Shown: one piece after another, positions 739 through 8,254 of the stretch
How positions within the stretch are numbered: the stretch's first letter is position 1
Layout of the letters: every line of letters begins with the position of its first letter
IMG/VR virus record: IMGVR_UViG_2802429253_000010
Direction: 5' to 3' (one strand)
DNA length: 9,672 nucleotides
Origin: a virus
Taxonomy: Duplodnaviria > Heunggongvirae > Uroviricota > Caudoviricetes
Position numbers and translations under genes: made by a program
The notes under the pieces: generated by a model
Told to the model about the DNA's origin: nothing
Databases searched by the model: none
Seen by the model: only the letters and a program-made list of their open reading frames with translations

Positions 739-1833
739 TTACCCCCTGAAGCCCAGTGGAATTTCGGTATCCGGTTCAGAAATATGATTCACACAACGCT
801 GGTTGTTCGTACCGCTTACCGGGAGCAACCAGGGGTTTTCAAAATTCCGGTCCGGTCCAAAAAACGTCGTCGCTCGCTGAACAAATTCCGTTCCCGTTTT
901 CCCGGTAGCCGCCAGGTATCTTGCGTAACGCCTCACACCATCCAGCATGGCCTCTGGTGGCACCCCCTCGCGTAATCTGGCCTTCCAGGCACTGAAAGCG
1001 GATTTCTTCGGGTTTGCCCCAGCACGCAACGGGTATTCCCGCCAGACCTGTTCGAACACATCCGGATAATCTACTCGTCCCACAGGCTGCCCGGTGTTTT
1101 CCGGGACTACCCGATCGGCTTCCCGCTGAATGGCGGAATCGGCTTCAGGCTGCTGCAGTTGGTGTGATTGCTCCGGCCTTGCGGTCATCACCTGCTGCAC
1201 AGCGCCCGAATCGGCTTTCAGCGCATACGCTGAATCGGCTTCCGGTGTCGTGCCTGCTGGCTGACCAAGATTGACGGTCTGAACATCCCCTGCCTGGTTC
1301 GTGGCGTTTTTTACGCCATGGACCATAGTGTTTTGATCTTCTTGATCTGTATCTTTATCTGTATCTTTATCTGTATCTTTATCTGTATCTTTATCTGTCG
1401 TGACTCGTCGTGACATGTGCGTGACATTTCGTGACGCGCCGTGACAATCGCCATTTTGTTCCCGCTTTCTTTCCCTCTCTCGCTGCGCCCTCTTGCGCTC
1501 TGCAGGAGATTTTGCGGTTTGCGAAATATTGCCGTTGTCCTCTTTAAGCACCTGGCGTTTTTCCCATCCAGTGATTAAATCACCATCAAGTACCCGCCCC
1601 TGCATCGTCTGCAAAATTGAATCAATTACCTCTTCTGTCACGTCGAGCGCACTTGCCAAATCTTCTGTCGTGACATCAATGTGACCTCGCGTGACATTTC
1701 GTGACGCGCTCACCAGGAGGTGGATATACACTGCCATCACTGTTGCAATTGGCTGCCCTGACACCCTGGCAATTGTTCGCCACTTAGGGTCATTTGGCAT
1801 GTCATGCCATAATCTGAGCCAAGCGTTAGCCAT
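739..1833 (-). CDS. Putative phage replication initiator (O-like/replisome organiser) with internal origin-like iterons; 364 aa from ATG at 1833
   Basis: ORF 739..1839 in track begins with GTG; an in-frame ATG two codons in (complement of 1831-1833) has an SD (GAGGTG, about 5-nt spacer), so 1833 is the preferred start. Contains iteron-like direct repeats and a (DKDT)n peptide repeat within the coding sequence, as in lambda O/ori. Arg/Glu-rich linker (RERERKRE). Position immediately downstream of cro-like and CII-like genes. Family assignment is inference. Confidence 0.6.
   Translation of the reverse strand: MANAWLRLWHDMPNDPKWRTIARVSGQPIATVMAVYIHLLVSASRNVTRGHIDVTTEDLASALDVTEEVIDSILQTMQGRVLDGDLITGWEKRQVLKEDNGNISQTAKSPAERKRAQRERERKREQNGDCHGASRNVTHMSRRVTTDKDTDKDTDKDTDKDTDQEDQNTMVHGVKNATNQAGDVQTVNLGQPAGTTPEADSAYALKADSGAVQQVMTARPEQSHQLQQPEADSAIQREADRVVPENTGQPVGRVDYPDVFEQVWREYPLRAGANPKKSAFSAWKARLREGVPPEAMLDGVRRYARYLAATGKTGTEFVQRATTFFGPDRNFENPWLLPVSGTNNQRCVNHISEPDTEIPLGFRG
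1345..1398. repeat. Perfect tandem repeat, 4.5 copies of 12-bp unit ATCTGTATCTTT (nine alternating hexamers ATCTGT/ATCTTT); encodes TDKDTDKD... in the replication protein
   Basis: Read directly from sequence 1345-1398; an additional ATCTT at 1336-1340. Confidence 0.9.
1399..1445. repeat. Iteron-like cluster I: five CGTGAC direct repeats phased at 10-11 bp (starts 1399, 1409, 1420, 1430, 1440); putative replication origin core
   Basis: Direct observation; helical-turn phasing typical of initiator-binding iterons; located inside the initiator gene next to a polypyrimidine tract (about 1459-1502). Confidence 0.6.
1669..1705. repeat. Iteron-like cluster II: CGTGAC-type direct repeats at 1669, 1680 (TGTGAC), 1690, 1700; includes an exact 20-bp copy (cgtgacatttcgtgacgcgc, 1690-1709) of 1420-1439
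   Basis: Direct observation; also an inverted GTCACG at 1637-1642 and a 9-bp direct repeat tcttctgtc (1631-1639 and 1661-1669). Both clusters encode the repeated peptide SRNVT in the initiator. Confidence 0.55.
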
Positions 1834-1904
1834 ACTCACCTCTTCTGATACCGAATCTTTTTACTCACGAGTTGCCGGAAGCGATTCGATATGGCTATTG
1901 TCAG

Positions 1905-2330
1905 TCAATGTACTGCCACAGCATTTCCTGCCGGGCCACCACGGTTCATCTGATTGAAACCGGCGATTGCCACTGCGACAAAATCATCAGCGTCTCTCAC
2001 CAATCGCTCCCGCGTCTCCACCAGCTCCCGAAAATAAGCTGAACTGTGGCTGCGCATTCTGGCCACCAGCAAAGGTGGCATTGCCTTTTCGATCGCTGGT
2101 AACAACGCCTGAATTTTTTCAACTGCATCAGGGGTGTCTTTCTCTACCCAGCGGAAAATTTTCTGGGTATTGCGAGCCAAGGCTTCCGGATGGCTGTCGT
2201 CATACAGTTCAGGAAACGTCATACCCAACTCAAAATAAGCCTGGGTTATTCCAGCTGCTGGAACTTTTTCGCCATCAGGACGCGCCCAGGCATTCATCGC
2301 CATGCGGATGTGTTCATGCTTGATTTTCAT
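1905..2330 (-). CDS. Phage CII-like regulatory protein (YdaT-family-like), 141 aa
   Basis: ORF track gives 1905..2402; the internal ATG (complement of 2328-2330, MKIKHEH...) has a strong SD (AAGGGGGG, 4-nt spacer) and avoids a long overlap with the upstream cro-like gene, so it is preferred. Size, N-terminus and position after the cro-like gene match my recollection of Rac YdaT; not verified. Confidence 0.6.
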   Translation of the reverse strand: MKIKHEHIRMAMNAWARPDGEKVPAAGITQAYFELGMTFPELYDDSHPEALARNTQKIFRWVEKDTPDAVEKIQALLPAIEKAMPPLLVARMRSHSSAYFRELVETRERLVRDADDFVAVAIAGFNQMNRGGPAGNAVAVH

Positions 2331-2556
2331 GAATCCCCCCTTGGTTAGAAGGCGGATTATGATCAGAACCGGGAATGACAACCGTCGGTATGTGTAACTC
2401 ATATTTGAGCGCCCCGGCAGTGACTGCCTGAATTAGCAACGCCCATTTCCACGGAACCTCTTCCCCCCACATGCTGACTGTGGTTTTTGACGTTCCTAGA
2501 GCTGCGGCTGTTTTAACAACTCCGCCAAAATAGCCTAATACTTCTGATTTTTTCAT
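2314..2556 (-). CDS. Cro-like HTH regulator (DicC/YdaS-family-like), 80 aa
   Basis: ORF track 2314..2604 starts at TTG; the in-frame ATG (complement of 2554-2556, MKKSEV...) has an SD (TGGAG, 6-nt spacer). HTH-like segment VKTAAALGTSKTTVSMWG. Divergent from the repressor gene across a 91-bp operator region. Confidence 0.6.
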   Translation of the reverse strand: MKKSEVLGYFGGVVKTAAALGTSKTTVSMWGEEVPWKWALLIQAVTAGALKYELHIPTVVIPGSDHNPPSNQGGIHENQA

Positions 2557-2584
2557 GAGTCGCTCCATAAAACTGAACGCCAAA

Positions 2585-2648
2585 AGTTTAATAATCAAAA
2601 CCAAAGAAAGTCAAGAAACAAAACCATCTGTGTTTTAAAATCAAAACA
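2585..2648. promoter_or_regulatory. OR-type immunity switch: operator TGTTTT-N6-AAAACA (2631-2648) plus weaker copies (about 2586-2601, 2610-2625); candidate pR for cro-like gene (-35 TTGACT = complement of 2609-2614, -10 TAAACT = complement of 2585-2590); candidate pRM -10 TAAAAT (2636-2641) directly abutting the cI ATG
   Basis: Palindrome and hexamers read directly; the same 18-bp operator architecture recurs at 3353-3370. No SD upstream of the cI ATG at 2648, suggesting a leaderless cI mRNA as in lambda pRM. Promoter assignments are inference. Confidence 0.5.
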
Positions 2649-3286
2649 TGAGCAAGCAAACAATATCTGAACGCATAACCCAACGTATGCATGCGCTAAA
2701 CCTGAAAGGCAAAGACCTTGTCAATGCCACTGGCGCATCAAAAGGCTCCGTAAGTCAATGGATGAACGGTGGAGGAGCGCCGTCCTCGCGTTACATAAGT
2801 TCACTGGCAAAGATATTGAAAGTAAACGAAAATTGGCTTCTTAATGGAGGAGAGTTAAATACAGGTGATTCGCTTGATCTATCTTTACCGCCGATAAAAA
2901 CGGTTCCGCTACTATCACTTCAGCAGGCAGCAAGCTGGAGTGATTATATGAAAAATTCCTCAATAACCTCTTGTGTGCAGCTTGTCGGAGAAATCCCGGC
3001 CAATACCTTTGCAGTTGTTCTAGAGAGTGACAGTATGTCAACATCTGGTGGGGGAGTTTCCATCCCAAATGGTTCAACAGTTTTTGTTGATCCCGATCGA
3101 ACCGTACAACCAGGAAATATTGTCCTTGCCTTACCCAAAGGGACCACAACACCTGTCATTCGTAAACTGGAGATAGAAGGGCCGGATATTCTTTTAGTCC
3201 CCACGAATCCTCGCTACCCTTCAATTATGCTGGATGATCTATCTTGCATATTGGGCGTATGCTTTAAAATTCAACAAGATATTTAA
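2648..3286 (+). CDS. cI-like prophage repressor: N-terminal HTH (XRE-type) plus C-terminal LexA/S24 peptidase-like domain, 212 aa
   Basis: HTH segment (about aa 10-60); S24 hallmarks seen: Ser in ESDSM (aa 126-130) and Lys in VIRKL (aa 173); divergent to the cro-like gene; operators on both flanks. Confidence 0.85.
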   Translation: MSKQTISERITQRMHALNLKGKDLVNATGASKGSVSQWMNGGGAPSSRYISSLAKILKVNENWLLNGGELNTGDSLDLSLPPIKTVPLLSLQQAASWSDYMKNSSITSCVQLVGEIPANTFAVVLESDSMSTSGGGVSIPNGSTVFVDPDRTVQPGNIVLALPKGTTTPVIRKLEIEGPDILLVPTNPRYPSIMLDDLSCILGVCFKIQQDI

Positions 3287-3352
3287 CCAACCTCATCTAT
3301 TTGATTAACTGTATGCCATCGTGATGATGGCTTAACAGCTGCCTGCTTAAAA

Positions 3353-3399
3353 TGTTTTGATAAAAAAACATTGACCTGAAAAGTTCATTTTTCTAAACT
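3353..3399 (+). promoter_or_regulatory. OL-type operator (TGTTTT-N6-AAAACA, 3353-3370) immediately upstream of a strong sigma70-like early-left promoter (-35 TTGACC 3371-3376, 17-bp spacer, -10 TAAACT 3394-3399)
   Basis: Read directly; operator half-sites identical to the OR site at 2631-2648; the -10 hexamer is the same as the candidate pR -10. Equivalent position to lambda pL / Qin dicBp. Confidence 0.6.
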
Positions 3400-3578
3400 T
3401 CATTCATTCCCTCACCCCACCCCACAGAATGCAGGGTAATACTTCGAGTTACTAGGCAGTGGTCAGGGGTTAAGTAGCCAGCCCGAGGCGTAAGAACATG
3501 ACGGCAGGGTTCAACTTTAATAACTATGCAGCAGGTTTTTGTTCCGCTACCCCGGCGTTAAGGGGAAATGAGGTCAAC

Positions 3579-3734
3579 ATGGATACTATCGATCTTGGCA
3601 ACAACGAATCTCTGGTGTACGGCGTGTTTCCCAACCAGGACGGCACATTCACCGCGATGACGTATACCAAAAGCAAAACGTTTAAAACCGAAAATGGTGC
3701 CCGTCGCTGGCTGGAAAGAAACTCAGGTGAGTGA
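3579..3734 (+). CDS. ydfA: Small early protein, 51 aa (ydfA-like by size and position); alternative start at 3498 gives 78 aa
   Basis: ORF 3498..3734 in track; the internal ATG at 3579 has the better SD (AGG/GGGGAA upstream, 5-nt spacer) and gives the 51-aa size I recall for Qin YdfA. Symbol rests on size and synteny recollection only. Confidence 0.45.
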   Translation: MDTIDLGNNESLVYGVFPNQDGTFTAMTYTKSKTFKTENGARRWLERNSGE

Positions 3735-3735
3735 T

Positions 3736-3864
3736 ATGGATTTCGACACAATCATGGAAAAGGCTTACGAAGAATACTTCGAAGGCCTTGCCGAAGGCGA
3801 AGAAGCTCTCAGCTTCAGTGAGTTTAAACAGGCGCTTTCCAGCTCGGCAAAATCTAACGGCTGA
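3736..3864 (+). CDS. ydfB: Small acidic protein, 42 aa (ydfB-like by size and position)
   Basis: Not in the ORF track (below its length cutoff). ATG 3736 preceded by SD AGGTGA (3725-3730); translation MDFDTIMEKAYEEYFEGLAEGEEALSFSEFKQALSSSAKSNG; stop TGA 3862-3864. Preferred over the overlapping Arg-rich track ORF 3731..3940. Confidence 0.5.
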   Translation: MDFDTIMEKAYEEYFEGLAEGEEALSFSEFKQALSSSAKSNG

Positions 3865-3893
3865 TAAGCGAAGCAGCACCGCGAGGAATCAGT

Positions 3894-4112
3894 ATGCAGA
3901 AACGAGAACCCGTCATCATCGCGCCAGACTATACCGATGATGAACTTTATGAGTGGATGCGCCAGAAAATTAATGCAGCGCAGGATCTGAAATGGGCCAA
4001 TGAAGCCAGGGCTAAGCAGGCTGAAAATCTGTCCGCTCTGGAGCAGGATATCACCAATCTGGAAAAAGCAGCGGCATTAAGCATTGCCAGAATGATTACA
4101 TACCCACGTTAA
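3894..4112 (+). CDS. ydfC: Small early protein, 72 aa (ydfC-like by size and position)
   Basis: ORF 3894..4112; SD GAGGAA (3883-3888) with 5-nt spacer; size and order match my recollection of Qin ydfC. Confidence 0.55.
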   Translation: MQKREPVIIAPDYTDDELYEWMRQKINAAQDLKWANEARAKQAENLSALEQDITNLEKAAALSIARMITYPR

Positions 4113-4134
4113 TAGCTAACCAACAAGGCTAATA

Positions 4135-4542
4135 ATGGAATTTAAAGATTTACCAAAAGAAATCCAGACAATTGCTGCAACGACTCTCGGTGATAGTCTG
4201 GTGAAAATTGACCCGGCATACACCAAAAAAGAAACCATCGATAATATGGTTCGTAATGTGCGCAATGCTTTTTCTGGGCTATATGGTTCTGATAATCAAA
4301 AGCAGGAAAGCGACGTTAATGAACGGGTAATTTCTGTTTGCGTGAATGGCCATGTTCTTTCATCAATCAAAACAGAAACAGCAACACTCTTCGATTGCCT
4401 TTGCATTGTACAGAGTCTTGTTGATGCCCTGTTTCGTTCAGTGAATTTAGAAAATGATGCAAATCTGCGAGGGCGCACAATAGCACATCCATATGCACAT
4501 ACTTTAGGCTCGGTGGATATCAAAGATCCCACAAATCTTTAA
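4135..4542 (+). CDS. Hypothetical protein, 135 aa, in an AT-rich block; unknown function (candidate accessory/moron gene)
   Basis: ORF 4135..4542; SD-like AAGG (4124-4127); protein-like composition; lies in an AT-rich segment that I do not recall in the canonical dicB operon. Confidence 0.5.
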   Translation: MEFKDLPKEIQTIAATTLGDSLVKIDPAYTKKETIDNMVRNVRNAFSGLYGSDNQKQESDVNERVISVCVNGHVLSSIKTETATLFDCLCIVQSLVDALFRSVNLENDANLRGRTIAHPYAHTLGSVDIKDPTNL

Positions 4543-4753
4543 TGAAATAGTTAACGCGAATTGTACTTGCTCTTTCAGTTGCTTTCAGAATACGCGTTGA
4601 AACTGCTGGCGGTAATTTGGTATTCCATTTATTAAAATCATGCCCGGGAAAGTACTCTTCGAAAATACTTTTAACTGCAGACTCGCCTATTGAAATGCTG
4701 CTTACCATGCGATTTTGATAAAGGCATTTAGCAATAAGAGTTGATTTTAACAT
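4520..4753 (-). CDS. Hypothetical protein, 77 aa, convergent with and overlapping by 23 bp the 3' end of the 135-aa gene; unknown function
   Basis: ORF 4520..4753 on minus strand; strong SD (AGGAGG, about 4-nt spacer) before the ATG. Caveat: the SD lies in a palindrome (ccctcctgaggg), so it may be coincidental. Confidence 0.4.
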   Translation of the reverse strand: MLKSTLIAKCLYQNRMVSSISIGESAVKSIFEEYFPGHDFNKWNTKLPPAVSTRILKATERASTIRVNYFIKDLWDL

Positions 4754-4789
4754 TCACCCTCCTGAGGGTTGGTAATTAAGGAGTTCTCC

Positions 4790-5086
4790 ACGGGTGAGGT
4801 GGAGTGCGTGCGCCGGACACGGGTGAACATCCGGCACTGACAGTTTACTGAAAGGATATTTCCCTGAAAAGTCAGACCATAACGCGAAAGCGCACGGCGA
4901 GGTAGTTGGTTCATAGATAGCCTGTCGTTAAATTTTCGTCGACCGTGCGCTTCCGGTTGTGGCACTCCGCGAAATGGCGCGGCGGTAAGTATGGCGGGGT
5001 TATTCCTTCCCCGTTGAGGACACCGGGTTGTCAGGTTGACCATACGCTTAAGTGACAACCCCGCTGCAACGCCCTCTGTTATCAAT
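4790..5086 (+). other. GC-rich, highly structured non-coding segment immediately upstream of DicF (probable dicF precursor/processing region of the operon transcript)
   Basis: All plus-strand frames have frequent stops; multiple perfect stems seen: 10-bp stem 4888-4897/4943-4952, 9-bp stem 5025-5033/5053-5061, plus shorter hairpins (4967-4982, 4996-5012) and the direct repeat cacgggtga (4790-4798 and 4818-4826). Confidence 0.4.
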
Positions 5087-5139
5087 TTTCTGGTGACGTT
5101 TGGCGGTATCAGTTTTACTCCGTGACTGCTCTGCCGCCC
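5087..5139 (+). ncRNA. dicF: DicF small RNA (trans-acting sRNA that inhibits ftsZ translation); exact ends uncertain
   Basis: Sequence tttctggtgacgtttggcggtatcagttttactccgtgactgctctgccgccc followed by TTTTT (5140-5144) matches my recollection of E. coli DicF almost base for base. Context also fits: dicB and ydfD-like genes immediately downstream. Confidence 0.8.
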
Positions 5140-5144
5140 TTTTT
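5102..5144 (+). terminator. Hairpin plus U-run at the 3' end of DicF (intrinsic terminator-like)
   Basis: Stem GGCGG (5102-5106) / CCGCC (5134-5138) with inner CAG/CTG pairing, followed by CTTTTT (5139-5144). Large loop, so probably only a partial terminator, allowing read-through to dicB. Confidence 0.45.
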
Positions 5145-5313
5145 AAAGTGAATTTTGTGATGTGGTGAATGCGGCTGAGCGCACGCGGAACAGTTAAAAC
5201 CAAAAACAGTGTTATGGGTGGATTCTCTGTATCCGGCGTTAATTGTTAACTGGTTAACGTCACCTGGAGGCACCAGGCACTGCATCACAAAATTCATTGT
5301 TGAGGACGCGATA

Positions 5314-5502
5314 ATGGAAACGTTATTACCAAACGTTAATACGTCTGAAGGTTGTTTTGAAATTGGTGTCACTATCAGTAACCCTGTATTTACTGAAGAT
5401 GCCATTAACAAAAGAAAACACGAACGGGAGTTATTAAATAAAATATGCATTCTTTCAATGCTGGCTCGTTTACGTCCGATACAAAAAGGATGCTGGCAAT
5501 GA
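5314..5502 (+). CDS. dicB: DicB, cell-division inhibitor (62 aa)
   Basis: ATG 5314 with SD GAGGA (5302-5306, 7-nt spacer); protein METLLPNVNTSEGCFEIGVTISNPVFTEDAINKRK... matches my recollection of E. coli DicB in sequence, length and position after dicF. Contained in track ORF 5209..5502. Confidence 0.8.
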   Translation: METLLPNVNTSEGCFEIGVTISNPVFTEDAINKRKHERELLNKICILSMLARLRPIQKGCWQ

Positions 5503-5690
5503 ATACAGCATTTGCACTTGTTCTGACAGTTTTTCTTGTTTCCGGAGAGCCAGTTGATATTGCAGTCAGTGTTCACAGGACAATGCAGGAGTGTGTGACT
5601 GCAGCAACCGAACAGAAAATTCCCGGTAACTGTTACCCGGTCGATAAAGTTATTCACCAGGATAATAACGAAATCCCGGCAGGTCTTTAA
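5499..5690 (+). CDS. ydfD: YdfD-like small membrane/lysis protein (63 aa) with N-terminal hydrophobic segment; translationally coupled to dicB (ATGA overlap)
   Basis: ATG 5499 overlaps the dicB stop TGA (5500-5502); SD AAGGA 8 nt upstream; N-terminus MNTAFALVLTVFLVSGEPV is signal-peptide/TM-like; two Cys in the mature part. Contained in track ORF 5445..5690. Size and position match my recollection of Qin ydfD. Confidence 0.7.
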   Translation: MNTAFALVLTVFLVSGEPVDIAVSVHRTMQECVTAATEQKIPGNCYPVDKVIHQDNNEIPAGL

Positions 5691-5782
5691 AACAGTTCCG
5701 TAATAAACATCCGATTTCATTCTTATATGCCAGCAATGGCAGGGATTTGTTCACCCTTAAATCTGTAATGAGGTAAAACAAA

Positions 5783-8254
5783 ATGAGTAAAGTCTTTATT
5801 TGCGCCGCCATTCCGGACGAACAGGCAATAAAGGAAGAAGGTGCAGTCGCTGTAGCCACTGCCATTGAAGCCGGTGATGAACGTCGCGCACGCGCAAAAT
5901 TTCACTGGCAATTCCTGGAACATTATCCGGCTGCTCAGGACTGCGCTTATAAATTTCTTGTCTGCGAGGATAAACCCGGTATACCCCGCCCTGCCCTCGA
6001 TTCCTGGGATGCTGAATATATGCAGGAAAACCGCTGGGATGAGGCGTCTGCTTCCTTTGTCCCGGTCGAGACTGAATCCGATCCGATGAACGTCACTTTT
6101 GACAACCTAGCCCCTGAAGTACAGAACGCTGTCATGGTTAAGTTCGACACATGTGAAAACATCACTGTTGATATGGTGATTAGCGCACAGGAATTGTTGC
6201 AGGAAGACATGGCAACATTCGACGGCCATATCGTTGAAGCGTTGATGAAAATGCCAGAAGTTAACGCCATGTATCCGGAGCTTAAGCTGCATGCCATCGG
6301 GTGGGTTAAGCATAAATGTAAGCCTGGTGCCAAATGGCCCGAAATTCAGGCAGAGATGCGCATCTGGAAAAAACGTCGCGAAGGTGAACGCAAGGAAACC
6401 GGAAAATACACGTCTGTTGTTGATCTCGCCCGCGCCAGAGCCAATCAACAGCACACTGAAAATTCAACAGGAAAAATCAACCCGGTCATTGCTGCCACTC
6501 ATCGCGAATACAAGCAGACATGGAAAACACTGGATGACGAACTGGCCTACGCTCTCTGGCCTGGTGATGTGGATGCCGGAAACATTGACGGCAGCATCCA
6601 TCGCTGGGCAAAAAATGAAGTTATCGACAACGACCGCGAAGACTGGAAGCGTATCTCGGCATCAATGCGCAAACAGCCCGATGCCCTTCGCTACGACCGC
6701 CAGACTATTTTTGGCCTTGTCCGTGAACGTCCGATCGACATTCACAAAGACCCTGTGGCACTGAACAAATACATTACTGAATACCTGACTACAAAGGGCG
6801 TGTTTGAAGATGAAGGAAGAAATCAGAGCGCAACTGATACTCTCTCGTCGCCAGTACCAGAAACTGATGCAGTGGAAACGGCAATTCCGGACAACGAAAA
6901 AACCGAATGCAAAGTGGAAGTCGAACCATCTGTAGAGCGTGAGGGGCCGTTCTACTTCCTCTTCACCGACAAGGGTGGCGAAAAATACGGTCGCGCAAAC
7001 AAACTTTCTGGTCTGGATAAGGCACTGGCTGCCGGGGCTACTGAAATCACGAAAGAAGAATATTTCGCCCGCAAAAACGGTACATACTCAGGTTCACAAC
7101 AAAATACTGGTGCATCTGACACGACCGCACAACCAGGGCCGGTAAAAGTTACCGCTGACAAAGTAAACAAAATTATGCAGGCAGCCAATATCAGCCAGCC
7201 TGACGCCGATGAACTGCTTGCAGTATCACGTGGTGAATTTGTTGCAGGGATTAGCGATCCGAATGATCCGAAATGGGTGAAGGGGATTGAAACCCGCGAT
7301 TCTGTGAACCAGAACCAGCAAGAAACGGAACAGAACGACCAGAAAGCGGAACAAAACAGCCCAAATACGCAACAAAACGAGCCAGAAACGAAACAACCTG
7401 AACCAGTAGTGCAACAGGAACCGGAAAAGATCTGCACCGCCTGCGGTCAGAGCGGTGGCGGCAACTGCCCTGATTGTGGTGCGGTGATGGGCGACGCAAC
7501 ATACCAGGAAACATTCGATGACAAGAACCAGGTTGAAGTTCAGGAAGACGATTCGGAGAAAATGGAAGGCGCTGAACATCCACACAAGGAGAATGCTGGC
7601 AGCGCTCAGGACCACGCCAGCGATAGTGAAACTGGCGAGACGGCAGATCCCTTAATTACGATGAACGGTCATCACTTTATCACATCCACCAGCAGGACGT
7701 GTGACCATCTAATGATCGACCTTGAAACCATGGGAAAAAATCCTGAGGCCCCGATTATCTCAATAGGTGCAATATTTTTCGATCCGCAAACCGGAGATAT
7801 GGGACCGGAATTTAGTAAGACTATCGATCTGGAAACTGCTGGCGGAGTCATTGATCGGGACACCATTAAATGGTGGCTTAAGCAATCACGCGAAGCGCAA
7901 TCTGCCATTATGACCGATGAAATCCCGTTAGATGATGCACTGTTACAATTGCGGGAATTTATCGACGAAAACTCCGGTGAGTTTTTTGTTCAGGTCTGGG
8001 GAAATGGAGCCAACTTCGACAACACGATTTTGCGCCGTTCATACGAACGGCAGGGGATCCCCTGCCCGTGGCGCTACTGCAACGATCGCGATGTACGCAC
8101 AATCGTTGAACTGGGGAAAGCCATAGACTTCGATGCCAGAACGGCTATTCCATTCGAAGGTGAGCGCCATAATGCACTTGATGACGCCCGTTACCAGGCA
8201 AAATACGTTTCAGCTATCTGGCAAAAACTGATCCCGAGCCAGGCTGATTTTTAA
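5783..8254 (+). CDS. Large prophage exonuclease-like protein (823 aa): N-terminal region of unknown function, Q/E/N-rich acidic linker, C4 zinc-ribbon motif, C-terminal DnaQ-like DEDDh 3'-5' exonuclease domain
   Basis: ORF with SD GAGGT (5770-5774). Motifs read from translation: CTACGQSGGGNCPDCG (CxxC-x8-CxxC, nt about 7434-7481); Exo I DLETMG (nt about 7700), Exo II-like GNGANFDNT, Exo III HNALDDARYQ (H-x4-D). Occupies the slot of lambda exo / Rac recE just upstream of xis-int. Related proteins are often annotated exodeoxyribonuclease VIII (recollection). Confidence 0.85.
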   Translation: MSKVFICAAIPDEQAIKEEGAVAVATAIEAGDERRARAKFHWQFLEHYPAAQDCAYKFLVCEDKPGIPRPALDSWDAEYMQENRWDEASASFVPVETESDPMNVTFDNLAPEVQNAVMVKFDTCENITVDMVISAQELLQEDMATFDGHIVEALMKMPEVNAMYPELKLHAIGWVKHKCKPGAKWPEIQAEMRIWKKRREGERKETGKYTSVVDLARARANQQHTENSTGKINPVIAATHREYKQTWKTLDDELAYALWPGDVDAGNIDGSIHRWAKNEVIDNDREDWKRISASMRKQPDALRYDRQTIFGLVRERPIDIHKDPVALNKYITEYLTTKGVFEDEGRNQSATDTLSSPVPETDAVETAIPDNEKTECKVEVEPSVEREGPFYFLFTDKGGEKYGRANKLSGLDKALAAGATEITKEEYFARKNGTYSGSQQNTGASDTTAQPGPVKVTADKVNKIMQAANISQPDADELLAVSRGEFVAGISDPNDPKWVKGIETRDSVNQNQQETEQNDQKAEQNSPNTQQNEPETKQPEPVVQQEPEKICTACGQSGGGNCPDCGAVMGDATYQETFDDKNQVEVQEDDSEKMEGAEHPHKENAGSAQDHASDSETGETADPLITMNGHHFITSTSRTCDHLMIDLETMGKNPEAPIISIGAIFFDPQTGDMGPEFSKTIDLETAGGVIDRDTIKWWLKQSREAQSAIMTDEIPLDDALLQLREFIDENSGEFFVQVWGNGANFDNTILRRSYERQGIPCPWRYCNDRDVRTIVELGKAIDFDARTAIPFEGERHNALDDARYQAKYVSAIWQKLIPSQADF

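Follow-up and report, generated by a model that had tools for sequence, protein, structure and literature searches.

Convergent promoters and antisense RNAs are established components of the switches of temperate phages, as illustrated by the lambda oop RNA, which opposes the 3' end of cII, by the pR/pL pair of coliphage 186, and by sar/ant of P22. Accessory DNA of another kind, the moron, is an extra transcription unit found in genomes of the HK97/HK022 type, and carries its own promoter and terminator. In lambdoid phages, the interval between cI and N is a documented mosaic hotspot, which houses rexAB and bstA and is the home of abortive-infection genes expressed in the lysogen (PMC8585504). 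Here we analyse two small open reading frames (ORFs), ORF135 and ORF77, found in a 9,672-nucleotide stretch of viral DNA (IMG/VR record IMGVR_UViG_2802429253_000010, hereafter the window) that covers the immunity and early-left region of a lambdoid prophage of the Qin/Rac type. They make up a module of two genes, mobile among lambdoid prophages of enterobacteria: a gene for a protein with a "VNG domain", named here after a conserved V-N-G motif, runs head-on into a gene for a 77-aa helical protein. Judged by its likenesses, this module appears closest to the accessory units in the immunity region of lambdoid phages and to the antisense or convergent switch devices, while being a member of neither.

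The convergent pair and its conservation

In the window, ORF135 (4135..4542, plus strand) and ORF77 (4520..4753, minus strand) are convergent, and their 3' ends overlap by 23 bp (4520..4542). The overlap is partly palindromic (ATCAAAGAT/ATCTTTAAT) and encodes the conserved C-termini of both proteins, FIKDLW being read from one strand and I(K/T)DP from the opposite one, the window proteins ending in IKDLWDL (minus strand) and IKDPTNL (plus strand). By our definition, the pair consists of a member of the ORF77 family (74-78 aa, MLKSTLIAKCL...WN...FIKDLW) and a VNG-domain gene that converge with overlapping 3' ends, as they do in the window. Loci were collected mainly by a scan of viral contigs, a scan of genome contigs giving 4 loci. 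The pair was present in 78 of the 80 loci of the viral-contig scan, with an overlap of 23 bp in 76 and of 26 bp in 2, and the two remaining loci were truncated copies of ORF77. Wherever the DNA could be read, ORF77-family genes of Enterobacterales were convergent with a VNG gene and overlapped its 3' end: by 23 bp in Serratia, Klebsiella and Proteus, by 23 bp even in a relative with 42% identity in ORF77, and by 51 bp in Citrobacter.

ORF135 is a fusion. It was split into N- and C-terminal parts by PHROG profiles, and both the alignment and an AlphaFold model (predicted local distance difference test, pLDDT, 73.6) concur. The N-domain (aa 1-55, MEFKDLP..., 4135..4299, plus strand) is predicted to form a helical hairpin (residues 8-50), followed by a disordered linker (residues 52-60) and by the VNG domain (aa 62-135, 4318..4539, plus strand), modelled as a beta-hairpin plus helices (residues 65-124). 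ORF77 is modelled with much higher pLDDT (95.8) as a small protein of five helices, for which no match was found among solved structures. ORF135 matches phrog_1363 (E = 4e-46) and its C-domain phrog_23433 (E = 2e-9), while ORF77 matches phrog_10348 (E = 1e-47); all three entries are of "unknown function", and pairing, fusion and position are unrecorded there. No remote homology was detected between ORF77 and VNG (hhalign probability ≤13%). One public source labels the exact 77-aa protein "dGTP triphosphohydrolase", which is almost certainly an annotation transfer error. A P-loop reading of the conserved EANASGKT motif was discarded, as the spacing does not fit a Walker A motif and the protein has just 78 aa. 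Further conserved residues are AVAADY in the VNG domain and, in ORF77, the N-terminal helix and W43-N44.

Outside E. coli, VNG-domain homologues are stand-alone proteins of 77-86 aa, found in Serratia, Klebsiella, Raoultella, Dickeya, Citrobacter, Enterobacter, Leclercia, Yersinia and Proteus, and in some Citrobacter members a ClpX-type zinc finger replaces the E. coli N-domain. ORF77 homologues with 55-72% identity, nearly all of exactly 77 aa, were found in Klebsiella, Raoultella, Serratia, Dickeya, Xenorhabdus, Salmonella, Morganella, Yersinia and Proteus, and a profile search over 1.84 billion representative proteins extended the family to 163 clusters at 50% identity, nearly all of 74-78 aa. 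VNG evolves faster than ORF77 (mean identity 45% vs 61%). Between genera, the ratio of non-synonymous to synonymous rates (dN/dS, Nei-Gojobori) was 0.2-0.6 for the VNG domain and 0.08-0.38 for ORF77, and not a single non-synonymous difference was found in ORF77 among three E. coli prophages; both genes are under purifying selection.

The position of the pair outside E. coli is informative. In Klebsiella (locus L010) and Serratia (L008), the interval between cI and VNG holds palindromic operators like those of the cI-cro interval, and these overlap a sigma-70 promoter pointing into VNG (10/12; TTGACC-18-TATTAT and TTGACG-16-TAAACT). Since CI-type operators and a promoter stand directly before it, VNG is predicted to open the CI-repressed early-left operon (pL) in these two genera. 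In 9 of 10 further loci, a gene for a repressor with helix-turn-helix (HTH) and Peptidase_S24 domains is the next gene upstream of VNG. ORF77, in this native context, faces back toward pL. It is preceded by a conserved non-coding element, TTTTCACCAC..CGGTGGTATCTTGG..CACACAACCAAGAAG..ATG, present in Serratia, Klebsiella, Proteus and six metagenomic phages, which reads as a -35 box and an extended -10 (TGgTATCTT) ending some 31 nt before the ATG. An N-like antiterminator reading of VNG, suggested by its place as first pL gene, was rejected: the protein has a predicted fold and no arginine-rich motif.

Several repeats surround the element upstream of ORF77. It is flanked by an inverted repeat (TTGTGTG...CACACAA), a hairpin of the 5' untranslated region (TCTTGG..CCAAGA) overlaps the Shine-Dalgarno sequence (SD), and larger hairpins lie further upstream, with arms of 28 nt in L010 and 19 nt in L008 (positions 5850-6000 in L008, 5780-6000 in L010, 4880-5000 in L013, plus IMG/VR loci). 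They could be an operator, or a terminator or antiterminator on the pL transcript. In the Citrobacter prophages L104 and L106 (4264-4873/5012), a ydfC homologue comes directly after the VNG/ORF77 pair, and is itself convergent and overlapping with a minus-strand ORF of 147-148 aa. Head-on pairs of small genes seem to recur in these early-left operons.

The cassette in the ydfC-dicF slot of E. coli

The dicB operon of K-12 has the layout ydfA-ydfB-ydfC-dicF-dicB-ydfD (PMC5069750). By BLAST against the Qin prophage of K-12 MG1655, positions 3541-4132 of the window match positions 1471-2062 of the K-12 locus with 98.0% identity, and positions 4767-5750 match 2063-3046 with 97.3% identity. The two matching blocks are adjacent in K-12 (positions 2062 and 2063), no K-12 base being lost from the window, and the extra DNA therefore spans exactly 4133..4766, a cassette of 634 bp. 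It is absent from K-12 Qin and from most Qin-like prophages, and does not belong to the core dicB (dicBF) operon. Its junctions read GCTAA/TAATGG on the left and CCTGAG/GGTTGG on the right. With a GC content of 0.391, vs 0.479 and 0.487 in flanks of equal size, it is the lowest-GC 634-bp stretch of the window, 0.4% of all segments of this length being equally low. Neither terminal inverted or direct repeats nor a target duplication were found at its ends, which speaks against a transposon-like insertion, and modular recombination is for this reason the more likely origin.

Most of what the initial annotation had drawn from the sequence holds up against these comparisons. The coordinates of both ORFs, their 23-bp overlap, the strong SD of ORF77, the K-12 gene order, the compositional contrast and the clean indel within the operon were all recovered. 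The AT-rich extra segment of about 680 bp, placed at 4113-4789, is real, but its boundaries are slightly narrower. The two ORFs are conserved, K-12 has no equivalent of them, and they are not core Qin genes of known function. What did not stand is the picture of a simple two-gene insertion: the block is instead a conserved pair of convergent genes, normally found at the cI-pL boundary in other lambdoid prophages of enterobacteria.

In E. coli, the pair has been recombined into a hypervariable slot between ydfC and dicF of Qin/Rac-type prophages, where VNG is fused in frame to the constant N-domain of the slot and ORF77 keeps only its SD. The edges of the cassette lie 2 nt before the ATG of ORF135 and 13 nt before that of ORF77, whose SD (AGGAGG, 4758..4763, minus strand) is placed 4 nt before the ATG. 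VNG as first gene of the pL operon together with an extended -10 before ORF77, as seen in Klebsiella, Serratia and Proteus-type loci, is not the arrangement of the window, in which ydfABC come first and the pair takes fourth place in the operon. No promoter or terminator was predicted for either gene inside 4133-4766. Downstream of the CI-type repressor gene, a candidate early-left promoter (TTGACC-17-TAAACT, 3371..3399, plus strand) would drive ydfA-ydfB-ydfC-ORF135-dicF-dicB. On the ORF77 side, the sole upstream sequence is the dicF leader (4767-5087), the right flank of the slot. The promoter scan upstream of ORF77 found none at ≥9/12, but just weak candidates in the dicF leader and the dicF-dicB region, such as TTTTCA-17-TAAACT (about 4842..4870, minus strand) in the leader, which K-12 has too. 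A promoter-like site pointing leftward (TTAACA-16-GAGAAT, 5222-5249, minus strand) was also noticed between dicF and dicB; a transcript starting there would be antisense to DicF and would reach ORF77 unless terminated.

The slot has several alleles. It is empty in K-12 and most strains, as in most other Qin-like loci, and is occupied by the 135+77 allele in about 650 genomes. The 201+63 allele, found in 8 genomes, also has a 23-bp overlap, and ORF63 has its SD and right junction in common with ORF77. In the 208+69 allele the genes abut, in the 179+80 allele they overlap by 20 bp, ORF80 being a zinc ribbon, and an allele with ORF133 was also found. The N-domain is confined to this slot, where its fusion partners are several C-terminal domains with no relation to one another, and a recurring design emerges: a constant N-domain, a variable C-domain and a convergent small ORF. 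Proteins of the alternative cassettes had no match in Pfam or NCBIfam and no significant one in PADLOC, the sole PADLOC hit being Csn2 for ORF63 (E = 0.014); like ORF77 and ORF135, they had none among PDB sequence profiles. No remote homology was seen between ORF77 and either ORF63 or ORF69 (hhalign probability ≤13%). The possibility that ORF135 is a C-terminally truncated 201-aa gene, its overlap being a recombination scar, was rejected, given that the same 23-bp overlap is formed with stand-alone partners elsewhere. Because this convergent overlap recurs in other genera, 135+77 is the ancestral pair and 201+63 an alternative cassette. The overlap of the latter (L003, 4584-4606) has the form TTA-N17-TAA vs TCA-N17-TAA, with the same 23 bp as window positions 4520-4542, and such identity in an unrelated cassette reflects either coincidence or constraint.

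ORF77 DNA was detected in 650 of 5426 complete E. coli genomes (~12%), and the N-domain gene in 664, that is, with a co-occurrence near 1:1. Carriers include O157:H7, O26, O111 and O145 strains (Shiga toxin-producing E. coli). The exact ORF77 sequence is found on at least 1000 public contigs, and ORF77 is also present in the PPompW and Stx2a prophage records and in phage Evi.

Around the cassette, the window has the expected content of such a region. Minus-strand genes at its left encode a DUF977 protein, a replisome-organiser-like ORF, YdaT and P22_Cro. They are followed by the gene of the CI-type repressor (HTH and Peptidase_S24, 2648-3286, plus strand), which lies left of ydfA (DUF1391), then by ydfB, ydfC (3894..4112, plus strand, the left flank of the slot), the cassette, the DicF small RNA (5088..5139, plus strand; Rfam RF00039, 76.7 bits vs a gathering score of 48), dicB and DUF1482, and finally by genes for an 823-aa exonuclease, an excisionase and an integrase. 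A second variable slot is the interval between the repressor gene and ydfA, which holds just 211 bp in the window (3287-3497). In related prophages it houses type II toxin-antitoxin pairs, RelB/RelE, PaaA2/ParE, and HigB with an HTH protein (L001 3337-3808, L004 2694-3172, L023 1181-1652, L021 821-1488). Two tandem repeats were recorded. One, of 12 nt (1340-1398, 4.9 copies, 97% matches), encodes the (DKDT)n tract of the 366-aa replisome-organiser-like ORF (739-1839, minus strand); the other, of 21 nt and imperfect (7306-7396, 4.3 copies), lies in the exonuclease gene, in a low-complexity stretch rich in Q/E/P/K upstream of the Rv2179c-like exonuclease domain. Two minus-strand ORFs, 5048-5203 (51 aa) and 5115-5720 (201 aa), are antisense to dicF, dicB and DUF1482. 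Both are probably spurious; the former is annotated in phage Evi as a 63-aa "hypothetical protein".

Comparison with described systems

The initial annotation had proposed a moron. The cassette indeed shares with morons its presence or absence among otherwise near-identical prophages, its GC content below that of the flanks, and a gene oriented against the operon. Accessory distribution and deviant composition thus agree with the proposal, but the absence of an internal promoter and terminator does not, nor does the place of ORF135, which would be read within the pL operon; moreover, the cassette is a pair, and not a single unit. As for type II toxin-antitoxin systems, the resemblance lies in two small, linked, co-inherited cytoplasmic proteins of a prophage, and in the presence of RelBE, ParE/PaaA2 and HigBA in neighbouring slots of related prophages. 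However, the genes of such systems are co-directional and co-transcribed, whereas ORF135 and ORF77 converge with overlapping 3' ends, form no bicistron, and match no known toxin or antitoxin family. The toxin-antitoxin, exclusion or defence function first suggested for the block gained support neither from homology nor from structure, and stays conjectural.

With lambda rexAB and with BstA/aba (PMC8585504), the native pair shares its place next to the CI repressor gene in a mosaic hotspot, an accessory distribution, and the proposed combination of a factor expressed in the lysogen with a device sparing the phage's own lytic growth. VNG and ORF77 nevertheless have no sequence or fold similarity to these systems. 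The arrangement also differs: rexAB and bstA are read in the same direction as cI from a common promoter, and aba is an element of DNA, whereas one partner of the VNG/ORF77 pair is a protein predicted to be driven by pL and the other is transcribed head-on. Likeness to oop/cII, 186 pR/pL and sar/ant resides in face-to-face transcription at an early promoter, giving RNAs complementary across the 3' end of a gene. In those devices, however, the antisense side is supplied by a non-coding RNA or by paired promoters, unlike the conserved proteins encoded here on both strands. No mention of these proteins was found in the literature on ydfC/dicF, WP_000920491 and lambdoid hotspots. The block is prophage hotspot cargo with an unusual and conserved head-on two-protein design.

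Possible roles of the pair

The architecture, position, conservation and promoter-like signals of the pair being established, a function can be proposed. Our preferred reading, which we hold with low confidence and at less than an even chance, is that ORF77 is an accessory factor made in the lysogen and countered by the immediate-early VNG protein and by head-on transcription. ORF77 would be transcribed while pL is silent, i.e. in the lysogen, to which it would lend an accessory function, the likeliest being that it excludes other phages, or interferes with them or with leaky early functions; this guess at exclusion or defence is made because of the cI-N neighbourhood. Upon induction or infection, strong pL transcription would cross ORF77 antisense and shut it off, via collision and a duplex of at least 23 bp. 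ORF77 protein already made would be counteracted by VNG, which is well placed for this as the first early product. VNG would then be a self-immunity partner, with a logic like that of BstA/aba or SieB/Esc. In the 201-aa allele the partner is kept in the absence of ORF77, as it is in Photorhabdus (L015), where ORF77 is frameshifted and VNG intact; such loci would fit an antidote or counter-factor role for VNG.

Several observations weigh against this proposal. Neither ORF77 nor ORF135 matches any family among the 5027 models of PADLOC (PADLOC-DB v2.0.0) at E ≤ 1, nor any Pfam or NCBIfam entry, in agreement with the earlier failure to name a homologue. Distant ORF77 relatives can be solitary (L018, L020, L016). 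The divergence of ORF77 and that of VNG are correlated (Mantel r 0.57, reached by 0 of 5000 permutations), which is however expected from linkage alone. In the E. coli window, the conserved promoter-like element of ORF77 is missing, because the cassette edge is only 13 nt before the ATG; as the native promoter is lost and no convincing replacement was found, ORF77 may be poorly expressed there. Within E. coli, ORF77 shows 6 synonymous vs 10 non-synonymous changes, giving a pN/pS of 0.44 from counts too few to tell relaxed from maintained selection, and some of these changes affect the otherwise invariant G23 and P36.

In a bolder form of the same proposal, the pair is an undescribed prophage module discriminating self from non-self, with ORF77, a protein without detectable fold relative, made only in the lysogen, where it would block competing phages or a host process, and switched off both by head-on pL transcription through an obligatory 3' overlap and by its cognate VNG protein as antidote; the slot would then be a library of such pairs (135/77, 201/63, 208/69, 179/80). 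This we consider unlikely.

The roles may also be reversed. VNG could be an early protein that takes over the host or inhibits its growth, with ORF77 made in the lysogen to neutralise leaky VNG and dampen leaky pL, in the manner of a convergent toxin-antitoxin system. The same architecture would speak for it, and toxic small proteins such as DicB and Kil are known from early-left operons (PMC5069750), Kil being annotated in phage Evi. The E. coli alleles, with a variable C-domain and its own convergent ORF, also look like cognate pairs. Yet VNG-domain genes persist where ORF77 is replaced (201+63) or frameshifted (Photorhabdus), and a toxin without antidote is awkward, although tolerable if the gene is expressed only in doomed cells. 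The pair also lacks similarity to toxin and antitoxin families and the co-transcription typical of type II systems. We regard this reversed polarity as doubtful.

Equally doubtful in our view is a functional independence of the two genes, ORF135/VNG serving as an ordinary accessory of early lytic growth and ORF77 as a small accessory gene of no relation to it, the two kept adjacent and overlapping only by tight linkage and genome compaction. The solitary distant relatives of ORF77 and the recurrence of convergent small ORFs elsewhere in these operons would be accounted for, as would correlated divergence, which linkage can explain; within E. coli, VNG subtypes differ by ~20% where ORF77 stays 99% identical. 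On the other hand, pairing, orientation and overlap are kept down to ~30-42% identity in ORF77, in at least 8 genera, and in mosaic phages with free recombination on either side of the pair, and in E. coli both genes entered another slot jointly.

Another explanation applies to the E. coli copy alone, and is compatible with each of the others: ORF77 would be an orphaned, effectively silent passenger, with only the ORF135 fusion, or nothing, being functional, the function residing in the ancestral cI-proximal context. The cassette edge that leaves out the promoter-like element, the absence of an upstream promoter at ≥9/12, and the pN/pS with its substitutions at G23 and P36 all point this way. 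Against it, the copies of 641 of the 650 genomes are ≥99% identical, with full-length ORFs, and all family-invariant residues are intact in that of the window. The strong SD has been kept, in common with the ORF63 cassette, weak promoters are present in the dicF leader, and the same ydfC-ORF135-ORF77-dicF segment is carried, with 98.4% identity, by Evi, a sequenced phage isolate. We think silence of the E. coli copy improbable.

Finally, a role as accessory of the lysis-lysogeny switch, with VNG as an anti-repressor or CIII-like protein, ORF77 as its inhibitor expressed in the lysogen, and face-to-face transcription as in 186 pR/pL or oop/cII, would suit a pair placed directly after OL/pL with a promoter facing pL, in phages where convergent promoters and antisense RNAs are established switch parts. 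We hold it very improbable. No DNA-binding fold or HTH was detected, the net charge of ORF77 is not conserved (pI from 4.6 to 9.5), the pair persists in E. coli at operon position four, far from the operators, and it is dispensable, most Qin-like prophages being devoid of it.

The interval between ydfC and dicF of Qin/Rac-type prophages is hereby defined as a hotspot, all alleles of which are uncharacterised. If functional, the VNG/ORF77 pair, which is present in 12% of complete E. coli genomes and in prophages of Klebsiella, Serratia, Proteus, Citrobacter and Dickeya, would join the few genes known from the core of the lambdoid immunity region as a compact and widespread module. Its architecture, with two conserved proteins encoded head-on over a fixed overlap, one under the CI-repressed early promoter and one facing it, predicts a way for a prophage to silence an accessory function as soon as lytic growth begins. 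In enterohaemorrhagic E. coli, the cassette lies inside the DicF/DicB precursor transcript, and antisense transcription of ORF77 could for this reason affect the output of a virulence-relevant small RNA.

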